From Bacteroidota bacterium (GTDB taxonomy: Bacteria > Bacteroidota > Bacteroidia > Bacteroidales > FEN-979), in NCBI GenBank assembly GCA_037138335.1, contig JBAXIO010000002.1, positions 142,315 through 206,314 on the forward strand: a stretch of 64,000 nt of DNA, read 5' to 3'. Below are positions 38,797 through 63,783 of the stretch, piece after piece. Below the pieces are notes generated by a model that had not been told where the DNA came from, did no database searches, and saw only the letters and a list, made by a program, of their open reading frames with translations. Made by a program: the position numbers and the translations under genes. Every line of letters starts with the position of its first letter. The first letter of the stretch is position 1.

Positions 38797-40057
38797 ACAT
38801 GTTCGCAATAATCTCTGAACCGAATTCAGAGCATTTGAGCTTGGTGGCCCCTTCCATCTGGCGTTCAAAGTCATAGGTAACCCTTTTCTTCGCAATCGCC
38901 CCTTCCAGCCCTTTAACAATAAGGTCTGCCGCTTCGTTCCAACCCATATATTCCAGCATCATTACACCCGAAAGGATGACCGAGCCCGGGTTCACCTGGT
39001 CTTTATTGGCATATTTCGGAGCGGTGCCGTGCGTTGCTTCAAACACAGCATGGCCTGTTACATAATTGATATTGGCACCGGGAGCAATCCCGATCCCGCC
39101 TACAATAGCTGCCAGAGCATCGGAAATATAATCGCCGTTAAGGTTCAGGGTTGCTATTACCGAATACTCTGCCGGGCGGGTCAGGATCTGCTGGAGGAAT
39201 GCATCGGCAATCACATCCTTGATGATGATGCGGCCTTCCGCAACAGCCTTTTTCTGGGCATCTTCTGCAGCCTGTTCCCCATCCTTGTCCTTTATCTTAT
39301 CATACCGGGCCCAGGTAAAGACCTTATCCCCGAATTCTTTTTCGGCAAGATCATATCCCCAGGTCTTAAACATCCCTTCAGTGAATTTCATGATATTCCC
39401 TTTATGGACAATGGTGACCGAAGGAAGTTTCTTTTCAATGGCATACCCGATAGAAGCTCTTACCAGGCGCTCAGTTCCATCTTTCGACACAGGCTTTATG
39501 CCAATGGATGAACTTTCGGGGAACCGTATTTTTTTTACACCCATTTCCAGGATCAGGAAATCGAGGACCTTCTTTACTTCAGCTGTCCCCGCCATCCATT
39601 CAATACCGGCATAAATGTCCTCGGAGTTCTCACGGAAAATTACCATCTCGGTAAGTTCGGGCTTCTTAACCGGAGAAGGAACCCCCTTGAAATATCTCAC
39701 GGGCCTCAGGCAAACATAAAGATCAAGTATCTGCCTCAAAGCAACGTTGAGCGAACGTATCCCTCCGCCTACCGGTGTGGTGAGAGGCCCTTTGATGGCA
39801 ACAAGATATTCCCTGATTTCATCCAGGGTTGCCTGGGGTAACCATTCCCCTGTTTGCTTGAAAGCTTTCTCCCCTGCAAGGACTTCTTTCCAGTGTATCT
39901 TCCTTTTCCCGGCATATGCTTTTTCAACAGCTGCATCGAAAACTTTCACACTTGCATTCCATATGTCAGGGCCTGTGCCATCTCCTTCAATGAAAGGAAT
40001 TACCGGATTCTCCGGAACTACCAGCCTGCCACCAGACAATGTTATCTTTTCTCCCAT
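38795..40057 (-). CDS. icd: NADP-dependent isocitrate dehydrogenase (homodimeric prokaryotic type)
   Basis: 420 aa. '[25 protein letters not shown]' and '[26 protein letters not shown]' signature blocks. Confidence 0.95.
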
Positions 40058-40084
40058 GGTATATAATTATTAATTAGTAAATAT

Positions 40085-44716: not shown

Positions 44717-44810
44717 TATTTTAAATTTAAATCAGAATGATTAAAGGAAACATGCAAATTTATTGATTCAAATTGTTAATTTTGAATTCGAATAAAAGAT
44801 ATTTTTTTAC

Positions 44811-47069
44811 ATGTTGCTCAAATTAGAAAACATAGAGGCTATCTATAAGAAAATCAGTGCTTCTGTAGAAAAAGCCAGGAAGATATTTAATCGGCCGTTA
44901 ACACTTACCGAGAAGCTTTTATACGGGCATTTGTTTGATGCGGTTCCTGATAAACCCTATGATAAGGGGAAGGATTATGTGAATTTCCTTATCGACAGGG
45001 TGGCTATGCAGGATGCCACGGCCCAGATGGCGCTGCTCCAGTTTATGACTGCGGGAAGGACCACATCGGCCGTTCCGGCAACGGTTCATTGCGATCATCT
45101 TATTCTTGCCAGGGAAGGTGTAAGCCCTGACCTTGCATCAGCGCTTTCACAAAATGCCGAAGTGTACAATTTCCTGCAATCAGTTTCGGCTAAATACGGT
45201 ATTGGTTTCTGGAAACCCGGTGCAGGCATCATCCACCAGGTGGTGTTTGAAAATTATGCTTTCCCCGGCCAGATGATGATAGGGACAGATTCACATACCC
45301 CGAATGCAGGCGGCCTGGGGATGCTTGCCATTGGCGTTGGGGGTGCCGATGCGGTAGATGTGATGTCGGGAATCCCGCTCGAGCTTAAAATGCCGAAGAT
45401 CATGGGAGTAGAGCTTACCGGCAGACTCAGCGGGTGGGTTTCGGCAAAAGATGTTATCCTGCTGCTCTCCGGCATACTTACGGTAAAGGGAGGTACAGGG
45501 TTCATCATCGAGTATTTCGGTGAAGGGGCCGAATCCCTTTCATGCACCGGAAAAGGTACTATCTGTAATATGGGCGCCGAAGTTGGGGCCACCTGCTCGG
45601 TTTTTCCATATGATGCCAGCATGAAGCGATACCTGGAATCAACCGGGCGCAAAGCCGTTGCCAACATCGCCAACCAGTATGCATCCTGTCTCAGGGCCGA
45701 TCCTGAAGTTGCGGCTGATCCCGCAAAATATTACGACCAGGTCATCACAATAAACCTTTCGGAACTTGAGCCTTATGTGAACGGCCCGTTTACCCCCGAC
45801 CTCGCCAACCCGGTCTCGGCACTGGCGGCTTTTCTCAAAGAGAATAATTATCCCGACACACTTGAGGTCGGGCTTATAGGTTCCTGCACCAACTCTTCAT
45901 ACGAAGACCTTTCAAGGGCCGCGTTCATTGCCCGCCAGGCAAAAGCCAAAAAACTGAACGTAAAATCAGGCTTTATCATCACGCCAGGCTCCGAACAGAT
46001 CAGGTTTACCGCCGAAAGGGATGGCATTCTTGAAGCCTTTGACGAAATCGGAGGGGTCATCATGGCCAATGCCTGCGGCCCCTGTATAGGCCAGTGGTCA
46101 AGGAAAATGGATGATCCCGGGAGGAAAAACTCCATTGTGACCTCATTTAACAGGAATTTCGCCAAGCGCAACGACGGCAATGCAGGCACGCATGCTTTCG
46201 TTGCATCCCCCGAAATGGTGACGGCCATGGCCCTTGCCGGGAGGCTTTCATTCAATCCTGCAAAAGATACTATTATAAATGCGGATGGCATAGCGGTTAT
46301 GCTCGACGAGCCTCAAGGTTACGAGCTGCCCCCAAAGGGTTTCGAAGTTGACGACCCGGGTTTCCTTGCCCCCCCCGACGATAGCGAAAATATAGTTGTT
46401 AAGGTGGATCCCGGCTCCGGCAGGCTGCAGCTCCTCGAGCCTTTCGATGCATGGGATGGAAAGGATATAAGGGGCATGCGCCTGCTTATCAAAGCACAGG
46501 GCAAGTGCACCACCGACCATATTTCAATGGCCGGGCCCTGGCTGAAATACCGCGGGCACCTCGACAAGATCTCCGACAATCTCCTGATGGGCGCGGTCAA
46601 TATATTCAACGGCAAAACCAATTCGGTCAGGAACGGGGTTACCGGTGAATATGCCGAAGTGTCAAAAACAGCAAGGTATTATAAAGCCAATGCCATCCCC
46701 TCACTGGTAATCGGCGATGAGAATTACGGAGAAGGGTCTTCACGTGAACATGCTGCGATGGAACCCAGGTACCTGGGAGTGAGAGCCGTCCTTGTAAGGT
46801 CTTTCGCAAGGATCCACGAGACCAACCTGAAAAAGCAGGGGATGCTGGCGCTTACCTTCGCCAATCCCTCTGATTATGATAAAATTCTCGAAGACGATGT
46901 ATTTGACATCATCGGCCTTGAGACTTTTACACCTGGCAAACCGCTGAAACTGAAAATCCACCATGCCGGTGGAAGTACGGAGGAAATACTCCTTAACCAT
47001 ACTTACAGCGACCTCCAGATCAAATGGTTCAAAGCAGGAAGCGCCCTGAATTTCATGAAAGAAAAGTAA
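44811..47069 (+). CDS. acn: Aconitate hydratase, mitochondrial-like type
   Basis: 752 aa. '[14 protein letters not shown]', '[13 protein letters not shown]', '[12 protein letters not shown]', '[11 protein letters not shown]' (three cluster cysteines). Length and N-terminus fit the mitochondrial-type enzyme rather than the ~890-aa AcnA/AcnB. Confidence 0.95.
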
Positions 47070-47099
47070 TAATTTTGAATTTATAACAAGCAGATTCAT

Positions 47100-48449
47100 A
47101 TGGATATACAGAAATTTATAACAGAGCATGCCCCTGAGACCCAGGCTTCATGCACTATTGACGAGCAGCTCTTCAAACAGTTTGATGTGAAACGGGGCCT
47201 GCGTAACGCCGACCATACCGGTGTGCTTGTCGGGCTAACCAGGGTCGGCAGTGTAGTGGGATATGAGAAAATTGACGGCAAACTTGAGGCTATTGACGGT
47301 AAGCTTATCTATCGCGGGATTGATATAAACGATCTCGTTCATGGGACACAAACCGAGAAACGGCCCGGCTTCGACGAAACCGTTTTTCTCCTGCTATTCG
47401 GAAGGCTCCCTAAAGCCGCGGAACTGAAAGCCTTCAGTGAAGGCCTGGCCGAGCAGAGGGCCCTGCCCGAAAATTTCAACCGTGACATGATCCTCACCAT
47501 GAAGGGCAAGGACATCATGAATATGATGGCCCGTTCGATCCTCGCCCTATACACCCTTGACGAGCAGGCCGACGATACTGAGATCCAGAATATCATCAGG
47601 CAATCGATAAGCCTTATCGCAAAGTTCCCCACCATTGCAGTGTATTCTTACCATGCAATGCGCCACCTGATTTATTATGATACCTTAAGTGTAAGGTACC
47701 CCGATAAAAAACTGGGCACGGCCGAGAATTTCCTGTATATGCTCAAGGGAAATGACTACACGCCACTTGAAGCCGAACTTCTCGACCTCTGCCTTGTGCT
47801 CCATGCCGAACACGGAGGCGGTAACAATTCAACCTTTACCACCCGGGTCGTGAGTTCCAGCGGCACCGATACCTACTCGGCCATTGTTGCGGCCATCGGC
47901 TCCCTTAAAGGGCCCCTGCACGGAGGCGCTAACATCGAGGTCATCCACATGATGAACAACATCAAAGCCAATATCAAGAATTGGGGCAATGATGATGAAG
48001 TTACCGATTACCTCCGCAAGATCCTGAAGAAAGAAGCCTATGACAAAAGCGGAAAGATCTATGGTTTCGGGCATGCCGTATACACCGTTTCAGATCCCCG
48101 CGCCATCCTCCTGAAAGAAAAAGCCAGGCTGTTGTCAAAGGAAAAAGGACGCGAAAAGGAAATGGCGCTCTATGAAGCTATCGAGCGCATAGGACCTGAG
48201 ATCTATTATGAATTCAAGGGAACCAGGGATAAACTCATCTCCCCGAATGTTGACTTCTACAGCGGTTTCGTTTACGAATGCATCAAGATACCCAAGGAAC
48301 TGTATACCCCGCTTTTTGCTATATCCCGGATCTCAGGATGGTGTTCCCACCGGCTTGAAGAACTCATCAGCGGCCGCAGGATCATACGCCCTGCATACAA
48401 GGCAGTTGAGCCCAGTAACAGCTACATCCCACTTACCGAGAGAGGTTAG
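47100..48449 (+). CDS. gltA: Citrate synthase
   Basis: 449 aa with catalytic blocks 'LVLHAEHGGGNNSTF', 'GFGHAVYTVSDPR' and 'NVDFYSG'. Confidence 0.9.
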   Translation: MDIQKFITEHAPETQASCTIDEQLFKQFDVKRGLRNADHTGVLVGLTRVGSVVGYEKIDGKLEAIDGKLIYRGIDINDLVHGTQTEKRPGFDETVFLLLFGRLPKAAELKAFSEGLAEQRALPENFNRDMILTMKGKDIMNMMARSILALYTLDEQADDTEIQNIIRQSISLIAKFPTIAVYSYHAMRHLIYYDTLSVRYPDKKLGTAENFLYMLKGNDYTPLEAELLDLCLVLHAEHGGGNNSTFTTRVVSSSGTDTYSAIVAAIGSLKGPLHGGANIEVIHMMNNIKANIKNWGNDDEVTDYLRKILKKEAYDKSGKIYGFGHAVYTVSDPRAILLKEKARLLSKEKGREKEMALYEAIERIGPEIYYEFKGTRDKLISPNVDFYSGFVYECIKIPKELYTPLFAISRISGWCSHRLEELISGRRIIRPAYKAVEPSNSYIPLTERG

Positions 48450-52833: not shown

Positions 52834-52895
52834 TTTTGTACTTTAATTAAAATTTGAACGTTTATTAAATGTTAAATCATAAAACAGAACAATCG

Positions 52896-53150
52896 ATGAA
52901 AAAAGTAACATTATTTGTTGGAATGATTGCCATGGCAGCATTCTTATCAACCTCAGTTTTAGCTCAGGATAAAACCCAGGATAAAACCAAGGAAGCCAAG
53001 CCTGCAACAACCCAGGCAGCTCCTGCAAAGACCGATGCAAAAGCTCCTGCTTCAAAGGAAGCCTGCAAGCCCGGTTGCACAATGCATAAAGAAGGAAGCA
53101 AATGCTGCGATAAAGACAAGAAAACAACAGCTACTCCTGAAAAGAAGTAA
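52896..53150 (+). CDS. Small secreted Lys/Ala/Thr-rich protein with a C-x3-C-x8-CC cluster
   Basis: The ATG at 52896 gives the signal peptide 'MKKVTLFVGMIAMAAFLSTSVLA'. The mature protein (~61 aa) contains 'CKPGCTMHKEGSKCC'. A strong terminator follows. Confidence 0.5.
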   Translation: MKKVTLFVGMIAMAAFLSTSVLAQDKTQDKTKEAKPATTQAAPAKTDAKAPASKEACKPGCTMHKEGSKCCDKDKKTTATPEKK

Positions 53151-53174
53151 GGTGTCATACCTTTTAATAAAAAA

Positions 53175-53202
53175 GCCCCGTCAATTCAGCGGGGCTTTTT
53201 TT
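53175..53202. terminator. Bidirectional intrinsic terminator
   Basis: 'AAAAAA-GCCCCG-TCAATTCAG-CGGGGC-TTTTTTT' between convergent genes (stops at 53150 and 53219). Confidence 0.72.
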
Positions 53203-53218: not shown

Positions 53219-53956
53219 TTATTTCTTCAAACCGGCGTCTTCCAGGATGAGTTCATAGAAGTACCCTGCGCCAAAATCCTTGTCTAGAGTTACTTTTCCT
53301 TCAAAGATTACTGTTTCCCCTACTTTTACCATGTCCTGGGTGGTAATTGTAAGATCGAAGTTCTCGCCTTCCTTGCTGCCGTCCTGGAGATGAACCCAGT
53401 TCTTGTCCATGATGCCTGGTGAAAATTTCACAACCTCTCCCCTGATCTTTACGGTTTTCCCTTCAAAGTTCTTGCGCCCTTTATATAGTTCTGCAATTGT
53501 TACTCCCCCGGCAAGCTTTGGAACAGAGATCCCTTTATGTTCAACCGCGGGCATTTTACCTGCTGAGGCTGCCTGGTGCATCTGGCCCATCTGCTGGTCG
53601 GCCGGCGCCTGGTTGGCAGCAAGGATGGGTTCTGATGAGAAATCCTGGATAAAAAATATGCTGCGGAAAGTCCGTTTAAGTTCTTTGCTTGTAAACTCCT
53701 GCATTTCAGATCCCTGGGACCAATAATAAGTGTCACCCGCTTTAATATCCATTTTTGCAACGGCAACCCAGTAGTCCCTTCCTTCGGCTGAAACCCTTGC
53801 ATAGGTGTATGCGCTGGTTTGTATGACTTCTTCGGCTTTAACCTGGTGGGCATTGGGTGCAAGACCAGCCGTTTTTTTATCGCTCCCGTTCTGGCACGAA
53901 AGCAGGAGTGAAGAGATTAATGCTACCAGAAAGAGGCTTCTATAGTGGATTTTCAT
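53219..53956 (-). CDS. Hypothetical lipoprotein with two OB-fold-like halves
   Basis: 245 aa. Lipobox 'LISSLLLSCQNG'. The C-terminal half, 'GKTVKIRGEVVKF...NWVHLQDGS...FDLTITT...VGETVIFEGKVTLDKDFG', resembles BOF/YgiW-type OB folds. The N-terminal half has a similar pattern. Confidence 0.5.
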   Translation of the reverse strand: MKIHYRSLFLVALISSLLLSCQNGSDKKTAGLAPNAHQVKAEEVIQTSAYTYARVSAEGRDYWVAVAKMDIKAGDTYYWSQGSEMQEFTSKELKRTFRSIFFIQDFSSEPILAANQAPADQQMGQMHQAASAGKMPAVEHKGISVPKLAGGVTIAELYKGRKNFEGKTVKIRGEVVKFSPGIMDKNWVHLQDGSKEGENFDLTITTQDMVKVGETVIFEGKVTLDKDFGAGYFYELILEDAGLKK

Positions 53957-53963
53957 ATCTTTG
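53956..53963 (+). promoter_or_regulatory. Candidate -7 promoter element (TATCTTTG) upstream of the cytochrome locus
   Basis: Exact TAnnTTTG match 62 nt upstream of the ATG at 54025. The same 'ATATCTTTGTAT' string recurs at 63871. No clear -33 element. Confidence 0.28.
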
Positions 53964-54024
53964 TATATTGATATTTATGTGCGCAAAGCTATGAATTTCC
54001 TTTGGTTTAAAAAATCTCCGCCAC

Positions 54025-54891
54025 ATGTCGTACATTCATAAAGCATACATTTTTGCTCTGAGTGTTGTTGTTCTTCTCACACTGGGTTTCCTTTTTTATC
54101 ATGGGTATACATATTACAGGCTCCCAATAGAGGAAAGGTTTTTTCACCAGGGCCACGCCCTGTTGAAGCCGGGTGGAAATTGGGGGCATGGATTCGGCAT
54201 TATTGGTTCCCTTTGCATGATATTTGGCATTGTTCTTTATATGATCAGGAAAAGAAGCAGGTTCCTGGCCCGGTTTGGGCTATTAAAGTATTGGCTGGAG
54301 TTTCATATATTTCTCTGCACCCTTGGGCCTGTATTAGTTCTGTTTCATACTTCATTTAAATTCGGGGGGCTTGTTGCAGTCAGCTTTTGGAGCATGGTCG
54401 CAGTTTTCCTGAGCGGAGTCGTGGGCCGGTTTATATATATTCAGATTCCAAGGACAATAGAAGGGCGTGAATTGAGTTTAAATGAAGTAAGGGATATGAA
54501 AAGTAATATCGGAACGATCTTATCCGAATCCTATAATCTCGACGAAGAAAGCTACAACCTTATAATTGACTCAACCAAAAAGAAAGTTGAATTATACCAG
54601 AGCAACCTATTCTTAAAATTTACAAGGAAGTATTTCGATGACCGTAAGACTATCAGCAGGGTGAAAGCTGCTGTGAAGAAGAATAATCTTTCGCGGGCCG
54701 ACAGGAAAGAAGTTGTGAACCTTGTAAAGCATGATATAACCTTGAACAGACGTATTGACAGGCTGGTTACGATGCAGAACCTTTTTAAATACTGGCACGT
54801 CGCACACCTGCCATTTGCAATTGTGATGCTTATCATCATGGTAATTCATGTAAGCGTGACTATAGTGCTTGGTTACCGCTGGATCTTTTAA
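54025..54891 (+). CDS. Five-helix membrane protein with histidines in or near the helices and a ~100-aa charged cytoplasmic loop
   Basis: 288 aa. Helices carry 'WGHGFGIIG', 'LEFHIFLCT', 'VLFHTSF', 'YWHVAHLPF', 'MVIHVS'. Possible heme-b or ferric-reductase-like role, but this is inference only. Confidence 0.6.
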   Translation: MSYIHKAYIFALSVVVLLTLGFLFYHGYTYYRLPIEERFFHQGHALLKPGGNWGHGFGIIGSLCMIFGIVLYMIRKRSRFLARFGLLKYWLEFHIFLCTLGPVLVLFHTSFKFGGLVAVSFWSMVAVFLSGVVGRFIYIQIPRTIEGRELSLNEVRDMKSNIGTILSESYNLDEESYNLIIDSTKKKVELYQSNLFLKFTRKYFDDRKTISRVKAAVKKNNLSRADRKEVVNLVKHDITLNRRIDRLVTMQNLFKYWHVAHLPFAIVMLIIMVIHVSVTIVLGYRWIF

Positions 54892-54900
54892 GTTTTAAGA

Positions 54901-56238
54901 ATGGAAACCCTTTTCGAAAACATCCTGATCTACTCTGTTGTATTTATTTTTTGCCTTGCGGTAGTAATTCTCTATCTGCGCAGGCAAAAGAGGAATTCCA
55001 ATCTTGTAGAGGAAAAGATATTAAAAGCCAAGCAGGATGGCTTGTATGAACCGGTATCACTGCATCCTGTCGTTGACCCGAATACCTGCATTCAAACCGG
55101 TGCATGCATCTCTGCATGTCCCGAGAAAGATATCCTGGGCATAAGGGACGGGAAGGCAACCACGATCAATGCATCGCACTGCATAGGGCATGGGGCCTGT
55201 TTCCATGCCTGTCCCACCCAGGCAATTTCCTTATGCATTGGTACTGAAAAACGAGGGGTTGAACTGCCTCATGTAAATTATAATTTTGAGACAAATATCC
55301 AGGGGATATATATTGCAGGTGAACTTGGTGGAATGGGCCTTATCAAGAATGCTGTCGAACAGGGCAGGCAGGCCGTTGAAAATATTGTCAAGGCTGGCAG
55401 GAAGCATCATAATGCCTCTTATGACCTGATCGTTGTTGGCGCTGGCCCTGCAGGCATTTCGGCCTCCCTGAATGCAAAAAAGCATAACCTTAACTGCCTT
55501 ATGCTAGAACAGGAGACCCTTGGCGGAACTGTCTTCAATTTTCCCAGAGCGAAAATCGTCATGACTTCACCTATGGACTTGCCGCTTCACGGCAAGCTGA
55601 AACTATATGAGACCAGCAAATCTGAACTCCTGGAGTTATGGAATACCGTTATTCAGAAGAATGATATCAGCATCAAGGAAAATTCAAAAGTCGAATCGAT
55701 TGTTCAGGAAAACGGGAATTTCAGGGTTGAGACCCTGAATGGTGAAAAATACACCTCGCGTTTCGTTTTGCTTGCAATAGGCAGGAGGGGAACTCCCAGG
55801 AAACTGAACATTCCCGGTGAGGGACTGGAGAAAGTTGCCTACCGTATGCTTGAACCCGAGATTATCAGCGGAAAAGAAATTATTGTAGTGGGTGGGGGGG
55901 ACTCGGCCATAGAGTCGGCTTTGCTTCTTGCTCCCCAAAACAAAGTTATTCTTTCATACAGGGGGGATGCCTTTAGCCGTCTCAAACCGCAAAACAAAGA
56001 GAATTTAGATGAGGCTGTTGAAAAGGGACTGGTTGATGTAAGGCTGAATACTAACCTTGAATCCATTGAACCGGATGAAATAACCCTGGTATCCGGAGGA
56101 GCAGGAGAGGAAAAGACCAGATTGAGAAATGACCTGGTTTATATTTTTGCCGGCGGTGAGCTTCCAACGGAGTTTTTAAAAAAAGTAGGATTGCAGATAA
56201 CTAAAAAATTCGGGGAGGCAGTACTGAAGCATCGATAG
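54901..56238 (+). CDS. Membrane-anchored 2x[4Fe-4S] ferredoxin domain fused to an FAD/NAD(P)-binding thioredoxin-reductase/YpdA-like oxidoreductase
   Basis: 445 aa. N-terminal TM helix. 'CIQTGACISACP' and 'CIGHGACFHACP' cluster motifs. Rossmann motifs 'DLIVVGAGPAGISASL' and 'IIVVGGGDSAIESAL'. Confidence 0.82.
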   Translation: METLFENILIYSVVFIFCLAVVILYLRRQKRNSNLVEEKILKAKQDGLYEPVSLHPVVDPNTCIQTGACISACPEKDILGIRDGKATTINASHCIGHGACFHACPTQAISLCIGTEKRGVELPHVNYNFETNIQGIYIAGELGGMGLIKNAVEQGRQAVENIVKAGRKHHNASYDLIVVGAGPAGISASLNAKKHNLNCLMLEQETLGGTVFNFPRAKIVMTSPMDLPLHGKLKLYETSKSELLELWNTVIQKNDISIKENSKVESIVQENGNFRVETLNGEKYTSRFVLLAIGRRGTPRKLNIPGEGLEKVAYRMLEPEIISGKEIIVVGGGDSAIESALLLAPQNKVILSYRGDAFSRLKPQNKENLDEAVEKGLVDVRLNTNLESIEPDEITLVSGGAGEEKTRLRNDLVYIFAGGELPTEFLKKVGLQITKKFGEAVLKHR

Positions 56239-56289
56239 ATTGCCAGGTAATCAGCCACTTCCGGATTCAATATATATACCATCACTACT

Positions 56290-57879
56290 ATGCGGAGAAT
56301 ATTTTTATTAAATATTTTCTTGTGGGTACTCTTGCCATCCCTCCCCTTGATCGCACAGATCTCACCCGGGAAACTGGCTTCGGTTCATTCTCACCTGGAA
56401 GGCATCTCCAACTGCACCAATTGCCATACCTTGGGCGACAAGGTCACCAATGACAAATGTCTTTCCTGCCATACCGAGCTTAAAGCCCGCCTTGACCTTC
56501 ACAAAGGGTATCATGCCTCTTTCGAGGTAAAAGGCAAAAACTGCACTTCCTGCCATAGTGATCATCATGGCCTGGCATTTCAGATCATTCGTTTTGACAA
56601 GGAGAAATTCAATCATACTCTTACCGGCTACCCTTTATCAGGAGCCCATGCAAAGAAAGTTTGCAAAGATTGCCATAAGCCTGACTTTATCAGTAACAGC
56701 AAGATAAAAAGCAAAAAATTCACTTACCTTGGCCTGAATACCAACTGTTTGCCCTGCCATAAGGATTATCATCAAAAAACATTGACGGCTCCATGCCAGA
56801 GTTGCCATGGAGATGCCTCCTTTAAACCGGCCACTAATTTCAATCATGCTTCGACTAAATTCTCACTCCAGGGAATGCACCAGACTGTTCCCTGCATCAA
56901 ATGCCACCCGGTCACTGTTACCAATAATGTTAATTTCCAGAAGTTTGCTGGGGTGCAATTTAAGCAGTGTTCCAGTTGTCATCCCGATCCGCATCATGGC
57001 CAGTTCGGAGTGAATTGCATGTCGTGCCATTCCGAAACTTCCTTCCATACGGTAAAAGGGATAAGCAACTTTGACCACGCTAAAACAAGGTACCCCCTTG
57101 AGAATAAGCATCAGGCAGTCGCCTGCAAATCCTGCCATAAGAATAATATCACCGACCCTGTTAAACACGAACGCTGCATCGACTGCCATACCGATTACCA
57201 TTACGGACAGCTCGCAAAGCAAGGGGTTGTGCCCGATTGTTCGGGTTGTCACACGACCAAAGGTTTCACAGGGGCTTCATTTACAATTGAGCAGCATAAT
57301 ACTGCGAATTTCAAGTTGCAGGGTGCCCATCTTGCAACCCCGTGTTTCGCCTGCCATAAAAAAAAGGAAAAATGGAGTTTCAGGCAGATCGGGATGCTTT
57401 GTGCCGATTGCCATAAGGACGTTCACGCAGGCTATATCAATAAAAAATACTATCCCGGAAATAATTGTGAAATCTGTCATAACCCTTCACTTTGGGGCAG
57501 TGTAAGCTTTGACCATTCACAAACACAGTTTGCAATTACAGGATCTCATGCAACTATCAGCTGCCGCGCCTGTCATTTTAAGAAGGATAGTACAGGAACT
57601 GAACACCAGCAATTTGCCGATATGCAGACCAACTGTTCGGGCTGCCATAAGGATAATCACAACCGGCAGTTTGAAACGAACGGAATAACTGATTGTTTGC
57701 GCTGTCATAATGCCAGTCTCTGGAAGATTGCAAATTTTGATCATAATAAAACGGCATTTAAACTTGACGGGAAGCACCAGAGTGTTCCCTGCGCCAAATG
57801 CCATAAAACGGTAACGGAACAGAATATTGCTTATGTACTTTATAAAATAAAGGATACAAGATGCGAAAGTTGTCATTAA
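56290..57879 (+). CDS. Periplasmic multiheme c-type cytochrome, 20 CXXCH motifs
   Basis: 529 aa with a Sec signal peptide and no lipobox. I counted 20 CXXCH motifs. Six 'F(D/N)H...(F/Y).L.G.H....C..CH' c3/c7-like units. The protein ends exactly on 'CESCH'. Confidence 0.92.
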   Translation: MRRIFLLNIFLWVLLPSLPLIAQISPGKLASVHSHLEGISNCTNCHTLGDKVTNDKCLSCHTELKARLDLHKGYHASFEVKGKNCTSCHSDHHGLAFQIIRFDKEKFNHTLTGYPLSGAHAKKVCKDCHKPDFISNSKIKSKKFTYLGLNTNCLPCHKDYHQKTLTAPCQSCHGDASFKPATNFNHASTKFSLQGMHQTVPCIKCHPVTVTNNVNFQKFAGVQFKQCSSCHPDPHHGQFGVNCMSCHSETSFHTVKGISNFDHAKTRYPLENKHQAVACKSCHKNNITDPVKHERCIDCHTDYHYGQLAKQGVVPDCSGCHTTKGFTGASFTIEQHNTANFKLQGAHLATPCFACHKKKEKWSFRQIGMLCADCHKDVHAGYINKKYYPGNNCEICHNPSLWGSVSFDHSQTQFAITGSHATISCRACHFKKDSTGTEHQQFADMQTNCSGCHKDNHNRQFETNGITDCLRCHNASLWKIANFDHNKTAFKLDGKHQSVPCAKCHKTVTEQNIAYVLYKIKDTRCESCH

Positions 57880-59816
57880 TCCTCCTGCTCGTGCAATTAT
57901 TTCCGCTGATGGCGTTCAGGTTGATGGCCGATTCACCACACGGCAAGGATTTTAAGCTAAGCTGTGATCTTTGTCATAGTTCAAAAGGGTGGAGTTTCGA
58001 TAAATCAATATACGCTTTCGATCATAATAGAACCGCTATGCCCCTTAACGGCCAGCACCAGGTGATCAGCTGCAGGCAATGCCATAAAAGTCTAGTTTTC
58101 TCTGAAGCTAAAACAGCCTGCGTGGATTGCCATACCGATATGCATAATCAGACTGTAGGGCCCGAATGCGGAAGGTGCCATACATCATCTTCCTGGATCG
58201 TAGAGAACATAACTGAGATGCACCAGAAAAGCAGGTTCCCACTTATTGGCCCGCATTACACTCCCGACTGTTCACGCTGCCATCCTTCGGCCTCCATGCT
58301 CAGGTTTGAGCCCCAGGGCGTAGAATGTTACGACTGCCATTCGAAAGATTATCTTGCCGCCACAAAGCCCAATCATGTCCAGGGCGGGTATTCAAAGAAT
58401 TGCGTGGAATGCCATTCAATTTTTAATAACACATGGAATACGACCAATGTAAATCACGATTTTTTCCCGCTTAAAAACGGGCACGCCATCAGTGATTGCG
58501 GGCAATGCCATGCAAATGGCAATTATTCCAACCTGTCAAAAGAATGTGTTTCCTGCCACCAGTCAAATTACAATGCAACTTCCAACCCGAATCATACCAC
58601 TGCCGGTTTCCCTGTGACGTGCAGCGATTGCCATACCAACATGCCTGGATGGAAACCTGCAACATTTACATCGCATGATGCCCAATTTTTCCCGGTTTAT
58701 TCCGGAAAACATGCAGGGACCTGGAATGCCTGTTCGGAATGTCATACGACCCCGGGCAGCCTTAAAACTTTCAGTTGCATCGATTGCCATGCTCATAACC
58801 AGGCCGATATGGACAGCAAACATAACGCAGTAGGAGGGTATTCCTATGCAAGCCTGCCTTGTTATGAATGCCATCCAACAGGAAGTGTTTCAGGAGCTTT
58901 TAATCATAATAACGGCGGCTTCCCTCTGACCGGGGCTCATATTACAACCCCATGCCTGCAATGTCATGCCAGTGGGTTCCAGGGTACACCAACAGACTGC
59001 TTTGCCTGCCACCAGGCAAGTTATAATACAACTATAAATCCGAACCACCCGGCAAAGAACATTCCGAATACCTGCGCTACCTGCCATTCCACAGCCCCCG
59101 GGTGGAAACCAGCAACATTTGCTATACACGGCAATTATTATCCGTTAACGGGAGCTCATACCACCGTGGCCTGCGCCACCTGCCATAACGGCAATTACAA
59201 CACTACACCGAATACCTGCGCCGGATGCCATCAGGCTAATTACAACGCAACCACAAATCCGAATCACGCAAGCCTGGGTATCCCAAATAACTGCAATAAC
59301 TGCCATACAACCAATCCCGGCTGGAAACCTGCTACTTTCGCGATTCACAATAATTATTATGTGCTGCAGGGCGCCCACACAACACTCTCATGTACAGCCT
59401 GCCATACCGGTAATTATACCAGTGCGCCGACCACCTGCGTAGGATGCCATCTTGCAAATTATAACCAGACTACCAATCCGAACCATACAGCAGCCCAGTT
59501 TCCTACCGACTGCGCTTCATGTCATTCACAAACTGCATGGACCCCTGCTTCGTTCAACCATGACGGGTCATATTTCCCTATTTATTCAGGGAAACACAAG
59601 AATAAATGGAACCTGTGTTCCGACTGCCACCCGAATCCCAGCAGTTTCCAGGTATTCACCTGCACTACGTCCTGTCATCCGCAGTCTTCAATGGATAATC
59701 ATCACCAGGGTGTTTCAGGGTATTCATACAACAGCCCAGCCTGTTACAGTTGCCATCCTACCGGCAATAGTGGAAAAATGTTCCAGAGACAGGATAACTT
59801 TTTGAGAAAGGAATAA
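57861..59816 (+). CDS. Periplasmic or outer-membrane-associated multiheme c-type cytochrome, 24 CXXCH + 1 CX3CH
   Basis: 651 aa with a signal peptide and no lipobox. Heme motifs counted by eye. Recurrent 'C..CH.(A/S)NYN.T.NPNH' blocks. The start overlaps the upstream cytochrome gene by 19 nt. Confidence 0.92.
   Translation: MRKLSLILLLVQLFPLMAFRLMADSPHGKDFKLSCDLCHSSKGWSFDKSIYAFDHNRTAMPLNGQHQVISCRQCHKSLVFSEAKTACVDCHTDMHNQTVGPECGRCHTSSSWIVENITEMHQKSRFPLIGPHYTPDCSRCHPSASMLRFEPQGVECYDCHSKDYLAATKPNHVQGGYSKNCVECHSIFNNTWNTTNVNHDFFPLKNGHAISDCGQCHANGNYSNLSKECVSCHQSNYNATSNPNHTTAGFPVTCSDCHTNMPGWKPATFTSHDAQFFPVYSGKHAGTWNACSECHTTPGSLKTFSCIDCHAHNQADMDSKHNAVGGYSYASLPCYECHPTGSVSGAFNHNNGGFPLTGAHITTPCLQCHASGFQGTPTDCFACHQASYNTTINPNHPAKNIPNTCATCHSTAPGWKPATFAIHGNYYPLTGAHTTVACATCHNGNYNTTPNTCAGCHQANYNATTNPNHASLGIPNNCNNCHTTNPGWKPATFAIHNNYYVLQGAHTTLSCTACHTGNYTSAPTTCVGCHLANYNQTTNPNHTAAQFPTDCASCHSQTAWTPASFNHDGSYFPIYSGKHKNKWNLCSDCHPNPSSFQVFTCTTSCHPQSSMDNHHQGVSGYSYNSPACYSCHPTGNSGKMFQRQDNFLRKE
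58999..59655 (+). repeat. Three in-frame tandem 73-aa (219-nt) triheme modules
   Basis: Module starts at 58999, 59218 and 59437: 'C.(A/G)CH.ANYN.T.NPNH....(I/F)P..C..CH...(P)GW.PA.F..H...Y.(L).G.H.....C..CH'. A more diverged copy starts at 58546. Confidence 0.8.
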
Positions 59817-59823
59817 ACGCCGG

Positions 59824-61476
59824 ATGAGATATTTTCTGCCCGTATTTTTCTTTCTATTCTCAGTATTCGCCGTGAGAGGTCAAACTGCAGGTATTACAGA
59901 AGAGGGGACTGTCACATTTATCAGTTCCCAGAATGTATATGTCAGGTTTATTTCAACCTCCCATATAAAGCAGGGTGATACTTTATATATCACAATCGGA
60001 AATAAGCAAGTACCTTCCCTTATTGTCAGGGACCTTTCATCGATCTCCTGTGTTTGCAGCCAGGTTTCATCAAATGCCGCAGCGGTTGGCGACAGGGTCT
60101 ATTTCAGGACCATGGAAGTAAAGGCTGTAAAACCGGCTGAACCTGCCCCGCCACCTGCAGTTGCGCAAGCCGGGAAGAAGCCCGATTCCACTGCCGTTGT
60201 TGCTGTTAGTGCAGTAACTCCAGCCGTGGGAAATCCTAAAGCCAGGGTAAGCAGGCAAGCCATTCACGGGTTTTTCCAGATCGCCTCCTATACCGATTTT
60301 TCAAATAATGCTTCTACCGCCCAACGGATGAAGTATACCTTCTCCCTGATCGGAAGGAACCTGGGAAATACGAACCTTTCGACCGAAATATTCCTGTCAT
60401 TCAATCACAGCAACACTAACTGGAACGAAATACAATCGGATATTTTCAACGGGCTGAAAATCTACAATCTGGATTTTAACTATGATTTCGGAACGAAAGC
60501 AAGCCTTCTCATTGGCCGTAAGATAAATCCCAAACTTTCAAACATGGGGGCTAACGACGGATTGCAGTTTGAGTTGAAGTTCAAACCGCTCAGTATCGGG
60601 TTGATCGCCGGGTTCAGACCCGATTATACCGACTATAGTTTCAATGCAAGCCTGTTTCAGTTCGGAGCATACCTGTACAATGAAACCCGAGCCAGGTCAG
60701 GGAGGACAATGCAAACCACCCTTGCCTTTATCAACCAGACCAATAACTGGAATACCGACCGCAGGTTTCTTTACCTGCAACATGTTAACACCCTGGTTAA
60801 AAACCTTACGTTTTTCGGATCTGCCGAAATGGATCTTTACAAAGTTGTATTCAACCAGCCTGACAGTACCTATAAATCAGGTAATACATTCAGCCTGACC
60901 AACCTGTATGTTTCGTTAAATTACCGGGTGATAAAGCAGCTCAATCTTTCGTTTTCATACAGTGCAAGGCAGAATGTGGTCTATTATGAGACTTATAAGA
61001 ACCTTCTTGACAAACTTACCGATCCGCAGACCCTTCAAGGTTATACGCTTCAGGCGGTTATAAGGCCTGCCAACAGGCTGGCCATAGGATTGACAGGAGG
61101 TTACCGTTTCGAGAAAGCCGACCCCAGGCCCAGTAAAAATTTTTACGGTTATATAACTTACACCCAGATCCCGGGAATTAATATGGCCGCCACTGCAACA
61201 GTGACTATTTTGCAAACAAGTTATATCAGCGGGAATATATACGGGATCGGACTGTCAAAGGACCTTGTTGGCGGGAAACTGTTTGCCAGCATTTCATACA
61301 GGTATACCGATTACAGTTTCTACAACAATGAGACGAGGGCGATTCAGAATGTTGGTGAAGTTGATCTGAGCTGGAGGATCTGGAAAAAGTTTTCCATGTC
61401 GGTATACTATGAAGGTACTTTTGAAACATCAAATCAGTATAACCGCATCTATGCTCAACTTAACCTTGGTTTTTAA
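59824..61476 (+). CDS. Predicted outer-membrane beta-barrel (porin-like) protein with N-terminal globular domain and Pro/Ala-rich linker
   Basis: 550 aa. Signal peptide 'MRYFLPVFFFLFSVFAVRGQ'. 'KPAEPAPPPAVAQAGKKP' linker. About 400 aa of alternating aromatic/polar strand-like segments. C-terminus 'YAQLNLGF' ends in a terminal Phe. Starts 7 nt after the cytochrome gene. Confidence 0.6.
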   Translation: MRYFLPVFFFLFSVFAVRGQTAGITEEGTVTFISSQNVYVRFISTSHIKQGDTLYITIGNKQVPSLIVRDLSSISCVCSQVSSNAAAVGDRVYFRTMEVKAVKPAEPAPPPAVAQAGKKPDSTAVVAVSAVTPAVGNPKARVSRQAIHGFFQIASYTDFSNNASTAQRMKYTFSLIGRNLGNTNLSTEIFLSFNHSNTNWNEIQSDIFNGLKIYNLDFNYDFGTKASLLIGRKINPKLSNMGANDGLQFELKFKPLSIGLIAGFRPDYTDYSFNASLFQFGAYLYNETRARSGRTMQTTLAFINQTNNWNTDRRFLYLQHVNTLVKNLTFFGSAEMDLYKVVFNQPDSTYKSGNTFSLTNLYVSLNYRVIKQLNLSFSYSARQNVVYYETYKNLLDKLTDPQTLQGYTLQAVIRPANRLAIGLTGGYRFEKADPRPSKNFYGYITYTQIPGINMAATATVTILQTSYISGNIYGIGLSKDLVGGKLFASISYRYTDYSFYNNETRAIQNVGEVDLSWRIWKKFSMSVYYEGTFETSNQYNRIYAQLNLGF

Positions 61477-62747
61477 TGCGCAGAAAATTCGACGTCCTTA
61501 TCGTGGGCGGAGGCCCGGCAGGTGTTTCAACCGCGCTTTGTCTCAGGGATTCCGGGCTTAGTGCGGCGCTTATCGACAAAGCCGTCTTCCCCCGCGAAAA
61601 GATCTGCGGCGACGGTTTAACCCTTGATGTGGTCAAGCAACTGGCCCTGATTTCTGAGGAACTTGCTGCTTCGTTCGGGAATTTTACCTCCAAATGGCCC
61701 TGTTACAGTGCCGAAATATTCTCCCCCGATTACAGTCAGATAAGCATAGCAGTGAGGCCAAAGCAGGAGCAGCGGCCGATGTTCACCTGCCGCCGGGCCG
61801 ATTTCGACAAGTTTCTAATAGACCAGGCAAAAAAGCTTGAAAATATCAGTATTTTTGAGAATACACATCCGCAGAAACTTGTTATTGATAAAGACAAGGT
61901 GCTGCTGGAAGCAGGCGAAGATACCTTTGAAGGCCGCGTTATTGTCGGAGCCGACGGGGTTAATTCTTTCGTTGCAAGGGAACTTGGAGTTGAACGGATT
62001 GGCAGGGGACAGCAGTGTGTGGCCCTCCGGACCTATTATACAGGCTTAAAACCCCTTCGTGAAGGCAGCCAGATCGAGATGTACCTGCCCGTTGAAACAC
62101 TCCCCGGTTATTTATGGATATTTCATCTTGGCGACGGCACTTCGAATGTGGGCGTTGGCATGCCTGCTCCGGTAATCAATAAAAAAGGGATAAACCTGAG
62201 GAAGTGTTTTGAAGGGCTGCTGATGTCAGAACCCCTGAAAAGCCGGCTTGCCGGCGCTATGCGCATGGAAGCTGTGAAGGGGTATACCATCCCCTATGGA
62301 GGACGCAGGCGTTCAATATCTGGCCACAGCTTCCTTTTAGCGGGAGATGCGGCGGCCCTGGTTGACCCGATAAGCGGTGAAGGTGTAGGAAATTCGATCA
62401 GGAGCGGAAGGGTAGCTGCCGGGCATATTATTAATTGTTTCAGGGCGGATGATTTTTCGGCGGGATTTAACAAAGCATACGATGACGAGATATACCGCAG
62501 GATGATGCCCGAGTTTAAGTTTCATATTATGTTAAGGTCCCTGTTAAAATATCCTTCCCTCCTGAATTATTTTGTTGGTACCGCCTCAGGCCACCCCCGT
62601 GTGGGACGCTCCCTCCAAAAGCTTGTCTGGAACCTTGGGATTAATAAATTAGGGTCAAGGATCCGTTTGGTCTTAAGCTTAACGTATATGTTCACCCTCC
62701 AGGGATTATTTGAACCGGTATCCCGCCCTGAAAGAAAAAGGGCGTAA
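61476..62747 (+). CDS. Geranylgeranyl-reductase-family FAD-dependent oxidoreductase
   Basis: 423 aa. 'FDVLIVGGGPAGVSTAL', 'KICGDGL', 'LLAGDAAALVDPISGEGVGNSIRSG'. The ATG shares one base with the upstream stop (TAATG). Confidence 0.85.
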   Translation: MRRKFDVLIVGGGPAGVSTALCLRDSGLSAALIDKAVFPREKICGDGLTLDVVKQLALISEELAASFGNFTSKWPCYSAEIFSPDYSQISIAVRPKQEQRPMFTCRRADFDKFLIDQAKKLENISIFENTHPQKLVIDKDKVLLEAGEDTFEGRVIVGADGVNSFVARELGVERIGRGQQCVALRTYYTGLKPLREGSQIEMYLPVETLPGYLWIFHLGDGTSNVGVGMPAPVINKKGINLRKCFEGLLMSEPLKSRLAGAMRMEAVKGYTIPYGGRRRSISGHSFLLAGDAAALVDPISGEGVGNSIRSGRVAAGHIINCFRADDFSAGFNKAYDDEIYRRMMPEFKFHIMLRSLLKYPSLLNYFVGTASGHPRVGRSLQKLVWNLGINKLGSRIRLVLSLTYMFTLQGLFEPVSRPERKRA

Positions 62748-62757
62748 TTTTACCCTG

Positions 62758-63783
62758 ATGTACATTGTTAGCTTATTCAGGGCTGTTGTATTCGTAAAGC
62801 GGTTTTTCAAAACCCAGGGGGAATTCAATTCACGATTTGTTGATGAGTTTATTGAACCCTTATGCAGAAAGTACGATACACGCCCCGGCACGGAGGTCCT
62901 TCATAAAATCAAAAAATATTACTGTATCGGCGTCCCCGTAGTTTGTGCAGGGTTTGCGAGGATATACGGGAGGGAGCTGACGCCGGAGGAGCGTGAAAAC
63001 GCCACAATGGGAGGGATAATCACCCCTCTCATCGATGACTTTACCGATAAAAACCAGCTTTCGCCAGGTCAGCTGAATACATTATTGTCCTTCTCGGCCC
63101 AGGCCGACCCCCCAACCCTTGAGGAAGCCATAGTCAACGCAATACTTGTAAAGTTATATGAGCGGGTAAGCAGCAGGGAGGGTACGGTGGATGCCTTCAT
63201 GCGGACTTTGCTGGCTCAGCGGGAATCGGCAAGACAGACCCGGAAAGGGCTTCCGCAGTCAGATCTCCTGAAAATAACCATGGATAAAGGAGCCTGGTCG
63301 CTGATATTATACCATTACCTGATAAAGGAAGTGCCCAACCGGCAGACCATCGGCATGATTTACCAGATGGGCGGGGTGCTGCAGATAGCCCAGGATATTT
63401 TTGATGTATATAAGGATTTTCATGAAGGAGTGAACACCCTTGCAAACACTTGCGGAGATTACAGTGAGTTTGAAAAATTTTACCTGGATGAATGCAGGAA
63501 GTTTTGTGCGCTGGCCAGGGCTTTACCTTACAGGAAGTCCGACCTGGAATTCTTCATTGTATTTGCGGCCAACAGCATGGCCAGGGGTATTGTTGCATTG
63601 AGAAAGTTGCAGAAGCTCCAGAGGAAGATGGGAGGTGGAGTGTTGCCATTCCCTGAGATTGAAAGGAGAAAGCTCATCTGCGATATGGAAAAGCCCGTTA
63701 ATTTCCTGAAGATGAACTGGTACGGGTATCTGATACTGGGCAAAAAAGCCAGGGCAGAGATCGTGCCTGGGGAACAGATTTGA
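62758..63783 (+). CDS. Class-1 isoprenoid synthase superfamily protein (squalene/phytoene-synthase-like)
   Basis: Asp-rich motif 'PLIDDFTD' (DDxxD) and second motif 'LQIAQDIFDVYKDFHEG', which resembles 'QLTNILRDVGED' of head-to-head synthases. The ATG at 62758 is preferred over the TTG at 62710. Confidence 0.45.
   Translation: MYIVSLFRAVVFVKRFFKTQGEFNSRFVDEFIEPLCRKYDTRPGTEVLHKIKKYYCIGVPVVCAGFARIYGRELTPEERENATMGGIITPLIDDFTDKNQLSPGQLNTLLSFSAQADPPTLEEAIVNAILVKLYERVSSREGTVDAFMRTLLAQRESARQTRKGLPQSDLLKITMDKGAWSLILYHYLIKEVPNRQTIGMIYQMGGVLQIAQDIFDVYKDFHEGVNTLANTCGDYSEFEKFYLDECRKFCALARALPYRKSDLEFFIVFAANSMARGIVALRKLQKLQRKMGGGVLPFPEIERRKLICDMEKPVNFLKMNWYGYLILGKKARAEIVPGEQI

Follow-up and report, generated by a model that had tools for sequence, protein, structure and literature searches.

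The subject of this analysis is a 64,000-nt stretch of DNA (the window) from a Bacteroidota bacterium of the Bacteroidales (FEN-979; GenBank assembly GCA_037138335.1, contig JBAXIO010000002.1, positions 142,315 to 206,314 of the forward strand), and in particular a cassette of five co-directional genes, here termed g1 to g5. They encode a predicted inner-membrane di-heme b cytochrome (g1), a membrane-anchored Fe-S flavoprotein (g2), two multiheme c-type cytochromes (g3 and g4) and an outer-membrane (OM) β-barrel (g5). The make-up of the cassette makes it likely that it specifies an electron conduit spanning the whole cell envelope, with about an even chance for the more specific proposal that the conduit runs outward and is fed by NAD(P)H. 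An earlier note on this DNA regarded the locus as a candidate for an undescribed system; its architecture in fact matches that of PCC3, proposed in 2017 (PMC5566968), and what stands out here is the flavoprotein/cytochrome b input module and the length polymorphism of g4.

The genes g1 to g5 are the first of seven co-directional open reading frames (ORFs) that span positions 54025 to 63783 on the + strand, as the earlier note had described (Table 1). The extent of the functional unit was examined by scanning one genome per species with g5, whereby at least 558 species showed a g5 relative and 80 loci were kept, and by a linkage survey in which the window proteins were compared by tblastn with 84 fetched related loci and the neighboring ORFs were clustered over 57 loci. 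The order g1-g2-g3-g4-g5 was unchanged in every related locus with enough flanking sequence. Across the 57 clustered loci, g5 and the g2/cytochrome cluster were always found (57/57 for both) and g1 was present in 51, the remainder being cut by contig ends. A homolog of the lipoprotein gene g0, which lies divergently upstream of g1 in the window, occurred in 26/57 loci, in some divergently oriented upstream of the cassette and in others immediately behind g5, and no further gene was conserved. This linkage upheld the proposal that the multiheme cytochromes and the barrel form a functional unit of the porin-cytochrome kind. The same survey did not support a unit of seven genes, with g6 found in none of the 84 related loci and g7 in one, the closest relative. 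The functional unit is thus g1 to g5 plus the accessory lipoprotein g0, and g6 and g7 are neighbors specific to this lineage.

The two cytochromes carry 45 heme motifs, as counted earlier, comprising 20 CXXCH in g3 and 24 CXXCH plus one CX3CH in g4, far above the ~0.3 motifs (maximum 3) obtained in composition-preserving shuffles. Every cysteine lies inside a heme motif (40/40 in g3 and 50/50 in g4), and none of the other ORFs of the window has two or more CXXCH. The proteins are paralogs (28% identity, E 1e-47) built of c7-like triheme modules, with Pfam matches to Cytochrome_C7 and c3. Histidines number 47 for the 20 hemes of g3 and 52 for the 25 hemes of g4, and the ratio of His per heme is 2.05–2.65 in g3 orthologs and 2.0–2.3 (2.02–2.28) in g4 orthologs, consistent with bis-His, wire-type rather than catalytic ligation at every heme. 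A catalytic multiheme enzyme was also considered and rejected, with no CXXCK or other special motif present and a His count fitting bis-His ligation throughout.

The paralogs differ in how their length behaves across loci. Exactly 20 motifs were found in 59 of 63 g3 sequences (window and orthologs), with a length of 527–564 amino acids (aa) in nearly all, and a homolog with only 35% identity on a contig of 70% GC also has 20 hemes. In g4 orthologs the motif counts were 13, 16, 19, 22, 25, 28, 31, 34, 37, 40, 46, 61, 67 and 70, the heme count fitting 13+3n in 47 of 54 sequences (again including that of the window). These orthologs range five-fold in length, from 341 to 1738 aa, with both termini conserved, and the variation arises from 73-residue triheme repeats. 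The number of residues per heme is ~26 (26.5 in g3). Solved multiheme wires such as MtrA and GSU1996 extend roughly 8–10 Å per heme; on this scale g3 would measure about 16–20 nm, on the order of a periplasm, and g4 about 10 to 60 nm. A fixed g3 and a growing paralog g4 would fit a division in which one piece spans the periplasm and the other is not limited to the space between the membranes. In two loci (L044, 11717-15262; L069, 10839-13490) a further very large cytochrome gene, with 46 or 34 hemes, follows the barrel gene.

The protein g5 has a signal peptide and a C-terminal Phe, and its earlier assignment as a barrel was supported by an AlphaFold2 model (mean pLDDT 75.8) with 22 antiparallel strands forming a barrel at residues 146–549. 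The barrel is preceded by a small N-terminal β domain of ~70 residues (26–94) and a disordered Pro/Ala-rich linker (98–141); the connecting loops are of 23 residues or fewer, and there is no plug domain. The standard barrel formula, with n = 22 and an assumed shear of ~24, gives a C-alpha radius of about 20 Å, a calculated value rather than one measured on the model. No Pfam match was found for g5 at E up to 10, its profile matched no PDB sequence, MtrB included, and sequence and profile searches against PDB chains likewise gave nothing for g0, g1, g3, g4 and g7. A homology search retrieved >2000 proteins, all annotated as “hypothetical”. In Foldseek, only generic large OM barrels were matched (ushers, TonB-dependent receptors, AlgE, and MtrB at rank 48), with TM-scores of 0.3–0.45. 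A TonB-dependent receptor was rejected on the missing Pfam match, the lack of a plug and the short N-terminal domain on its disordered linker. The only two cysteines of g5 form a CxC in the N-terminal periplasmic domain, C76 being invariant and C78 at least 90% conserved among 39 homologs, which recalls the functionally required N-terminal CXXC of MtrB.

The structural matches also bear on whether the barrel holds a cytochrome. The best ones are the pilus ushers FimD and PapC (E about 1e-9 to 1e-10), ushers too have an N-terminal periplasmic domain on a flexible linker, and g4 has no known export signal, so that g5 could be an export pore or usher for g4, or an unrelated porin, linked to cytochromes that act as free periplasmic or secreted wires. 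This is considered very unlikely, since the TM-scores are low and the matches span every large OM barrel class, MtrB included, while the g5 gene is tightly coupled to g4 (7-nt gap) and universally linked; export of g4 followed by its retention in the pore would in any case be compatible with a conduit in which g5 sheathes a cytochrome.

On the inner-membrane side, g1 has five hydrophobic helices bearing conserved histidines, in line with its earlier description, and loop charges that obey the positive-inside rule; it passes no curated family model. It carries W90x3H94x13H108 on transmembrane (TM) helix 3, S130GVVG on TM4 and W257x3H261x13H275 on TM5. His 5, 55, 94, 108, 258, 261 and 275 are invariant in its orthologs, and in relatives sharing 29–58% identity H108, H261 and H275 are still invariant and H94 is at least 90% conserved. 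The family is large, with 3165 clusters at 50% identity in an exhaustive profile search. As read from the sequence, each histidine pair has one member close to the cytoplasmic side of the membrane and the other close to the periplasmic side, the classic layout for a transmembrane stack of two bis-His b hemes, and g1 is predicted to be a di-heme b cytochrome. Matches to known heme-b membrane families were weak: g1 itself matched DUF4405 below the gathering threshold (E 0.059), and among 47 relatives there were sub-threshold matches to DUF4405 (14) and Ferric_reduct (5), and also to cytochrome b561 and PepSY_TM. Heme b binding has been demonstrated experimentally for one DUF4405 protein (PMC11334425).

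The partner of g1, g2, combines a single TM helix (residues 8–26, followed by RRQKR), a ferredoxin-like domain matched as a dicluster fold (Fer4_10, E 7e-11) and a flavoprotein domain (Pyr_redox_3, E 1e-40) that matches the TrxR fold (7a7b and 7a76, E 3e-28) and whose nearest solved structures are YpdA/Bdr and TrxR-type ferredoxin-NADP reductases. The sequence contains no Tat-type signal, the arginines coming after the hydrophobic helix, and a TM helix followed by RRQKR predicts that the catalytic domain faces the cytoplasm. The membrane anchor and the FAD/NAD(P) domain were as claimed in the earlier note; its canonical 2x[4Fe-4S] did not hold, as the motifs CxxT/SxxCxxxCP and CxxHxxCxxxCP each lack the second Cys and provide six cysteines, not eight. 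These six cysteines and H97 are conserved in 56–57 of 57 sequences (window and 56 orthologs), and position 66 is T or S. This pattern would correspond to one three-Cys cluster, either [3Fe-4S] or O-ligated, and one His-ligated [4Fe-4S] cluster. More distant relatives, on contigs of 70% GC (L099) and 35% GC (L090), have one canonical four-Cys motif plus CxxIxxCxxxCP, which suggests that the clusters are 3Fe-4S or His-ligated and differ in type between lineages. In the flavoprotein domain there is neither a Cys pair nor a redox-active CxxC, and scores for TIGR04018 and TIGR01292 are far under cutoff; g2 is therefore not a thioredoxin or bacillithiol-disulfide reductase despite the TrxR fold. In one locus (L024, 5819-8701) g2 and g3 form a single 960-aa frame, in which the g2 C-terminus continues directly into a g3 signal peptide that is shortened; the fusion may be natural or may reflect an assembly error and, if real, would fit g2 inside and g3 outside. 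The contig of that locus is labeled Alphaproteobacteria, probably by mis-binning. Overall, a membrane Fe-S flavoprotein pair does occupy the input position, as first noted, and the input module is distinctive and probably quinone-independent.

From these components an outward route can be proposed. NAD(P)H would be oxidized at the FAD of the cytoplasm-facing, membrane-anchored g2, and electrons would pass through its two non-canonical Fe-S clusters into g1, where a stack of two bis-His b hemes would take them across the inner membrane. They would continue to the 20-heme g3, acting as a periplasmic wire of fixed length, and to the modular g4, with its 25 hemes here, which may be held in or threaded through the plug-less 22-strand barrel of g5. 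From g4 they could reach acceptors outside the cell, which might be minerals of Fe(III)/Mn(IV), humic substances, conductive particles or partner cells. For mostly fermentative Bacteroidales of anoxic waters the payoff would be the regeneration of NAD(P)+ without the quinone pool and without hydrogen production. The fullest form of this proposal is a complete, quinone-independent NAD(P)H-to-outside wire with a split NOX-like input (g2 and g1), g3 as the ruler of the periplasm and g4 as a single-polypeptide extracellular nanowire through g5, its reach tuned in three-heme steps from 13 to 70 hemes (roughly 10–60 nm); it is offered tentatively, as a possibility that falls short of being likely.

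Comparison with described systems showed the closest likeness to PCC3. In the definition of He et al. from 2017, PCC3 has four components (PMC5566968). A porin is joined by two cytochromes, one periplasmic, made of 66-residue triheme repeats and holding 21 hemes in the median case, the other extracellular and repeat-rich, for which the median is 34 hemes and the maximum 85, with ~26 residues per heme. The fourth is an inner-membrane protein (IMP) of ~300 aa that has five helices, the fourth bearing SGXXG and the third and fifth WX3HX13H. The 288-aa g1 carries exactly this IMP signature. In g3 there are 20 hemes, where the PCC3 counterpart has 21, 24 or 27, and 26.5 aa per heme, against a PCC3 median of 26; g4 is repeat-rich with 25 hemes here and 13–70 in orthologs, and the 22 strands of the g5 model equal the number predicted for the L. 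cholodnii porin. Compared by description rather than by sequence homology, g1, g3, g4 and g5 thus have the architecture by which PCC3 is recognized, and the cassette resembles a variant of a PCC3-type conduit, not a wholly new kind. The high heme counts that had been contrasted with the 8–12 of Mtr and Pcc systems are real but are not distinctive, given the PCC3 medians of 34 and 21. The cassette differs from PCC3 in gene order (IMP-flavoprotein-multiheme cytochrome-multiheme cytochrome-porin, against porin-extracellular multiheme cytochrome-periplasmic multiheme cytochrome-IMP), in adding the strictly linked g2 and often g0, and in its hosts, which are Bacteroidota heterotrophs. PCC3 itself was defined bioinformatically, mostly in Proteobacteria (Sideroxydans, Leptothrix), and is functionally unverified (PMC10734462; 10.1101/2025.02.27.639646).

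The likeness to PCC3 raises the question of direction. PCC3 was proposed for inward flow, from Fe(II) oxidation to the quinone pool, and the signature of g1 was read by He et al. as that of a quinone-active di-heme cytochrome b in iron oxidizers (PMC5566968). PCC3 genes are expressed in iron-oxidizing Sideroxydans, and some distant g1-like genes have no adjacent g2, as in L092 (1-6205), where a multiheme cytochrome, a g1-like protein and an FGE-sulfatase-domain protein are encoded twice, convergently. The same hardware might thus be coupled to the quinone pool or run inward, with g1 active toward quinol or quinone and g2 as an auxiliary or regulatory branch, oxidizing Fe(II), reduced humics, Fe(0) or a cathode, or discharging menaquinol rather than NAD(P)H. 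This is held to be unlikely. The linkage of g2 to g1 is strict, both in those related Bacteroidota loci where the flank suffices and in high-GC relatives, and most hosts are heterotrophic anoxic-water Bacteroidales, not lithotrophs. Outward flow would moreover be favored by redox potential and by the inside-negative membrane potential, both of which would oppose transfer inward to NAD(P)+.

A further indication of the electron source came from plasmids of Alteromonas, Qipengyuania and Methylophaga, where a g1-like gene (21–27% identity to g1 at the protein level, E 5e-9 to 5e-4) lies between genes for an FNR-type reductase and a small c3-type cytochrome. The reductase, composed of FAD_binding_6, NAD_binding_1 and 2Fe-2S domains, is non-homologous to g2 and takes its place. 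The occurrence of two unrelated NAD(P)H dehydrogenases beside g1-like proteins and multiheme cytochromes suggests that g1 is fed by a cytoplasmic pyridine-nucleotide dehydrogenase, and is the best evidence here for such an input. These modules lie among copper/mercury resistance genes in Qipengyuania and Methylophaga and beside [NiFe]-hydrogenase genes in Alteromonas, and a gene for a DUF1622 protein follows the module in Qipengyuania and Methylophaga.

Nearly all of the 80 kept loci belong to uncultured Bacteroidales, Prolixibacteraceae, Draconibacterium, Lentimicrobiaceae, Marinilabiliales or Salinivirgaceae; their habitats are stratified lakes, groundwater, sediments and soils. A full cassette was also present in a cultured aerobe of the Cytophagales, Emticicia oligotrophica DSM 17448, on plasmid pEMTOL02 (NC_018749.1, 78197-90781; locus L093), with identities to the window proteins of 49% for g1, 62% for g2, 39% for g3, 42% for g4, 34% for g5 and 39% for g0. 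Its g2 has the same odd Fe-S motifs, its g4 has 40 hemes, g0 directly follows g5, and a fused ccsBA gene for cytochrome c maturation lies ahead of the cassette. Upstream, on the opposite strand, are genes for a Rieske protein, two beta-barrel proteins, YceI, a c-type cytochrome and an ECF sigma factor. Outside the Bacteroidota loci, one contig of 70% GC (L099) holds reordered homologs of g1, g2, g3 (20 hemes) and g4, followed by a gene for a Calx-beta protein, and a second of the same GC content (L097) holds g1-, g2- and g3-like genes. Since g1 to g4 homologs occur in 70% GC contigs, the system is not confined to Bacteroidota; its core appears to be much wider, and an invention restricted to this phylum was rejected.

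The presence of the cassette on a plasmid of an aerobic oligotroph, together with analogous plasmid modules among copper, mercury and P-type ATPase genes, would also suit a reductase of soluble or periplasmic substrates, serving metal detoxification or assimilatory metal reduction, in which the barrel passes the substrate and the cytochromes act as periplasmic reductase or electron capacitor. Ferric reductases follow the same NAD(P)H-FAD-two-heme-b logic, and multiheme cytochromes reduce soluble metals and quinones non-specifically. Such a role is nevertheless judged distinctly improbable: there is no catalytic subunit and no specialized heme motif, the His count being that of bis-His wires, and 45 to 90 hemes would be a high iron price for iron uptake. 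The five-fold length range of g4, with its ends conserved, is not readily explained if the enzyme stays within the periplasm, and a plug-less 22-strand barrel with short loops would be expected to leak unless filled by a partner.

Several observations weigh against an outward, envelope-spanning conduit fed by NAD(P)H. Neither cytochrome has a recognised route to the surface: in agreement with the earlier note, no lipobox-like motif was found in the first 35 residues of any of the 54 g4 sequences or in g3, and g3, g4 and g5 matched no family of T9SS (type IX secretion system) C-terminal sorting domains. Heme b binding by g1 is predicted from its motifs; the AlphaFold2 model of g1, made from a shallow alignment, was poor (pLDDT 62), and a Foldseek search with it was meaningless, with no match below E = 1. 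Both the cassette and PCC3 are putative conduits, g1 could equally exchange electrons with menaquinone, and inward flow is what was proposed for PCC3. As E. oligotrophica is aerobic and the proteobacterial analog modules lie in metal-resistance islands, metal reduction or detoxification fits as well as respiration. The energetic benefit would also be indirect, because outward flow from NAD(P)H dissipates the membrane potential.

Membership of the Mtr, Geobacter Pcc/Ext, Hmc, NapC/CymA or T9SS-cargo families was rejected on tests with family models, and the observation that the parts differ from the Mtr and Geobacter Pcc/Ext families was confirmed by the lack of an MtrB_PioB match for g5 and by decaheme models scoring far below cutoff. 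Like the cassette, MtrCAB, MtoAB and PioAB combine a multiheme wire with a large OM barrel and use one periplasmic and one outer cytochrome. In sequence they are unrelated to it, with TIGR03508 (DmsE/MtrA) giving 38.3 bits for g3 and 24.9 for g4 against a cutoff of 192. The MtrCAB barrel has 26 strands, compared with 22 here, and its cytochromes have 10 and 10 hemes, compared with 20 and 25 (13–70). The outer cytochrome here is not a lipoprotein, and the input is a flavoprotein/cytochrome b pair rather than the quinol dehydrogenase CymA; as stated in the earlier note, no NapC/NrfH/CymA-type protein is encoded at the locus, where only g3 and g4 carry multiheme motifs and Cytochrom_NNT was not matched. 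The Geobacter conduits OmbB-OmaB-OmcB and ExtABCD/EFG/HIJKL are Mtr-independent and likewise co-encode a porin with a periplasmic and an outer cytochrome. No family model of theirs was passed (GSU2203, ExtN and ExtO matches were short and far below cutoff), their outer cytochromes are lipoproteins, and their ImcH, CbcL and CbcBA quinol oxidases are encoded elsewhere.

Single parts of the cassette have counterparts in other systems. The NOX/FRE ferric reductases and the DUF4405/MsrQ/PepSY proteins share the path from NAD(P)H over FAD and two stacked b hemes to an outside acceptor, and the histidine pairs on two helices. In g1 the His spacing is 13/13, and, compared with NOX/FRE, the flavin domain is a separate TrxR-fold Fe-S subunit instead of a fused FNR-type domain and the acceptor would be a cytochrome c wire. 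Type B succinate:quinone and fumarate reductases (Bacillus, Wolinella) also place a cytoplasmic flavoprotein and Fe-S centers on a five-helix di-heme b anchor; this is analogy only, as folds and substrates differ, no homology was detected and no quinone site was identified here. The c7-type polymer cytochromes of Geobacter (GSU1996, GSU0592, GSU2210) consist of comparable ~70-residue triheme modules matching Cytochrome_C7. They differ in family score (TIGR04257, 19.6 bits against a cutoff of 40), in the all-bis-His ligation suggested here and in the encoding here with a barrel and an inner-membrane module. Desulfovibrio Hmc/Tmc connects a high-heme periplasmic cytochrome via a membrane cytochrome b to a cytoplasmic Fe-S protein, but runs inward and has no OM barrel; the HmcA model scored 40 bits against a cutoff of 400, and no HmcB-F homologs are present here.

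Gene clusters of the same make-up have been listed before as putative porin-cytochrome clusters, without analysis. A Lentimicrobium metagenome-assembled genome (MAG), reported to have a cluster with adjacent 61- and 20-heme cytochromes and a porin that matches the cassette, was recovered only from incubations with conductive particles (PMC13013709). A Bacteroidales MAG from Trout Bog has consecutive genes for a 20-heme cytochrome, an 18-heme cytochrome and a porin, listed as “Other putative PCC” (PMC6344600, Table S2), and unspecified porin-cytochrome operons of Bacteroidetes have been listed as well (10.1101/2020.04.01.018762). In the literature searched, no mention was found of the flavoprotein/cytochrome b input, of a link between the PCC3 IMP and Bacteroidota clusters, of the fixed 20 against 13+3n hemes or of the Emticicia copy.

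Bacteroidales, Prolixibacteraceae and Lentimicrobiaceae are abundant fermenters of anoxic lakes, sediments, groundwater and digesters. If the outward conduit is correct, such fermenters could discharge reducing equivalents directly to iron minerals, humics, conductive particles or partner cells, and models of carbon flow, methane suppression and mercury methylation guilds would change. The input would then be a third inner-membrane design for extracellular electron transfer, beside quinol dehydrogenases and the flavin-based system of Gram-positive bacteria. The motif match of g1 ties the cassette to the hypothetical PCC3 complex of iron oxidizers, and the plasmid copy of E. oligotrophica offers a cultured host in which both become testable. 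In the 13+3n series of g4, single-chain heme wires occur naturally in graded lengths, which is of interest for bioelectronics.

Table 1. Coordinates and assignments of the cassette, its neighbors and the related plasmid modules. Positions refer to the window unless a locus is named.
Feature	Position	Strand	Description
g0	53219..53956	-	245-aa lipoprotein, lipobox LLSC, GW/SH3-like domain; cassette accessory gene
g0/g1 divergent intergenic region, 68 nt	53957..54024		one TAnnTTTG motif per strand; likely promoters, weak evidence
g1	54025..54891	+	288-aa inner-membrane protein, five TM helices; predicted di-heme b cytochrome of PCC3 IMP type
g1 TM3 motif WX3HX13H (W90-H108)	54292..54348	+	sequence motif and conservation
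g1 TM5 motif WX3HX13H (W257-H275)	54793..54849	+	sequence motif and conservation
g2	54901..56238	+	445 aa; N-terminal TM anchor, ferredoxin-like Fe-S domain, TrxR-fold FAD/NAD(P)H domain
g2 Fe-S domain, residues 63-104	55087..55212	+	two three-Cys motifs, C63xxT66xxC69xxxC73P and C94xxH97xxC100xxxC104P
g3	56290..57879	+	529-aa 20-heme c-type cytochrome, Sec signal peptide; proposed fixed-length periplasmic wire
g4	57861..59816	+	651-aa 25-heme c-type cytochrome, Sec signal peptide; modular variable-length wire, proposed to reach the exterior
g4 triple 73-residue triheme repeats, residues 365-583	58953..59609	+	near-identical; CXXCH at +0, +15 and +40
g5	59824..61476	+	550-aa outer-membrane protein; signal peptide, N-terminal β domain, linker, 22-strand β-barrel (model)
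g5 CxC, residues 76-78	60049-60057	+	only two cysteines of g5
g6	61476..62747	+	423-aa geranylgeranyl-reductase-family flavoprotein; neighbor outside the conserved cassette
g7	62710..63783	+	357 aa from longest TTG start; no family assigned; neighbor outside the conserved cassette
Proteobacterial plasmid module	L094 7935-12654; L095 7890-11734; L096 7007-10784		g1-like gene between FNR-type reductase and small c3-type cytochrome genes

The successive gaps from g1 to g7 are +9, +51, -19, +7, -1 and -38 nt, so that the range of -19 to +51 nt given in the earlier note holds for g1 to g6. The last value applies to the longest TTG start of g7; because relatives of g7 measure ~329 aa, the true start is probably at 62758 or 62794, which makes the last gap positive. 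Upstream, the pair of TAnnTTTG motifs between g0 and g1 is suggestive only as promoters of g0 and of a g1-g5 operon, as this motif was found 49 times across the whole window against 46 expected, giving no enrichment. The assignment of g0 is based on a Pfam GW match (E 2e-4), and the Emticicia gene right after the barrel gene is annotated as a “GW dipeptide domain-containing protein”.

Of the two downstream neighbors, g6 passed the cutoff of the geranylgeranyl reductase family, as had been predicted (TIGR02032, 195.9 against 158.8 bits). For g7, described earlier as squalene/phytoene-synthase-like, no match was found in Pfam at E up to 10 (SQS_PSY included), NCBIfam or the PDB, and only a DDFTD motif is visible. 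Its family comprised 45 proteins with no known domain, the annotated members being from Bacteroidota MAGs, and its relatives elsewhere sit in unrelated contexts, with a NUDIX hydrolase adjacent in 2/3. Translationally coupled isoprenoid genes as part of the system are not conserved with the cassette, and an isoprenoid or quinone-tailoring branch formed by g6 and g7 was rejected on this ground and on the unrelated contexts of the g7 relatives.

In the wider window, a scan for sigma-70 promoters and terminators gave as its sole convincing site a strong bidirectional terminator with a 13-bp stem (53169-53201), which follows a 93-aa ORF (52869-53201) and also ends g0; the ORF encodes a secreted-looking, Lys/Thr/Ala-rich protein with a C-terminal cysteine cluster (CKPGC...CC). 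Nothing was found in the window by Rfam and tRNA scans. Positions 28777-37605 encode a protein of 2942 aa in which 26 stretches matched PKD_4 and which carries the type IX secretion signal CHU_C; a PorP/SprF gene comes after it (to 38740), which confirms a Bacteroidota host with T9SS, a system that the two cytochromes apparently do not use. Finally, genes for isocitrate dehydrogenase, aconitase and citrate synthase are clustered around that of a 1542-aa AMP-binding protein at 38795-48449.

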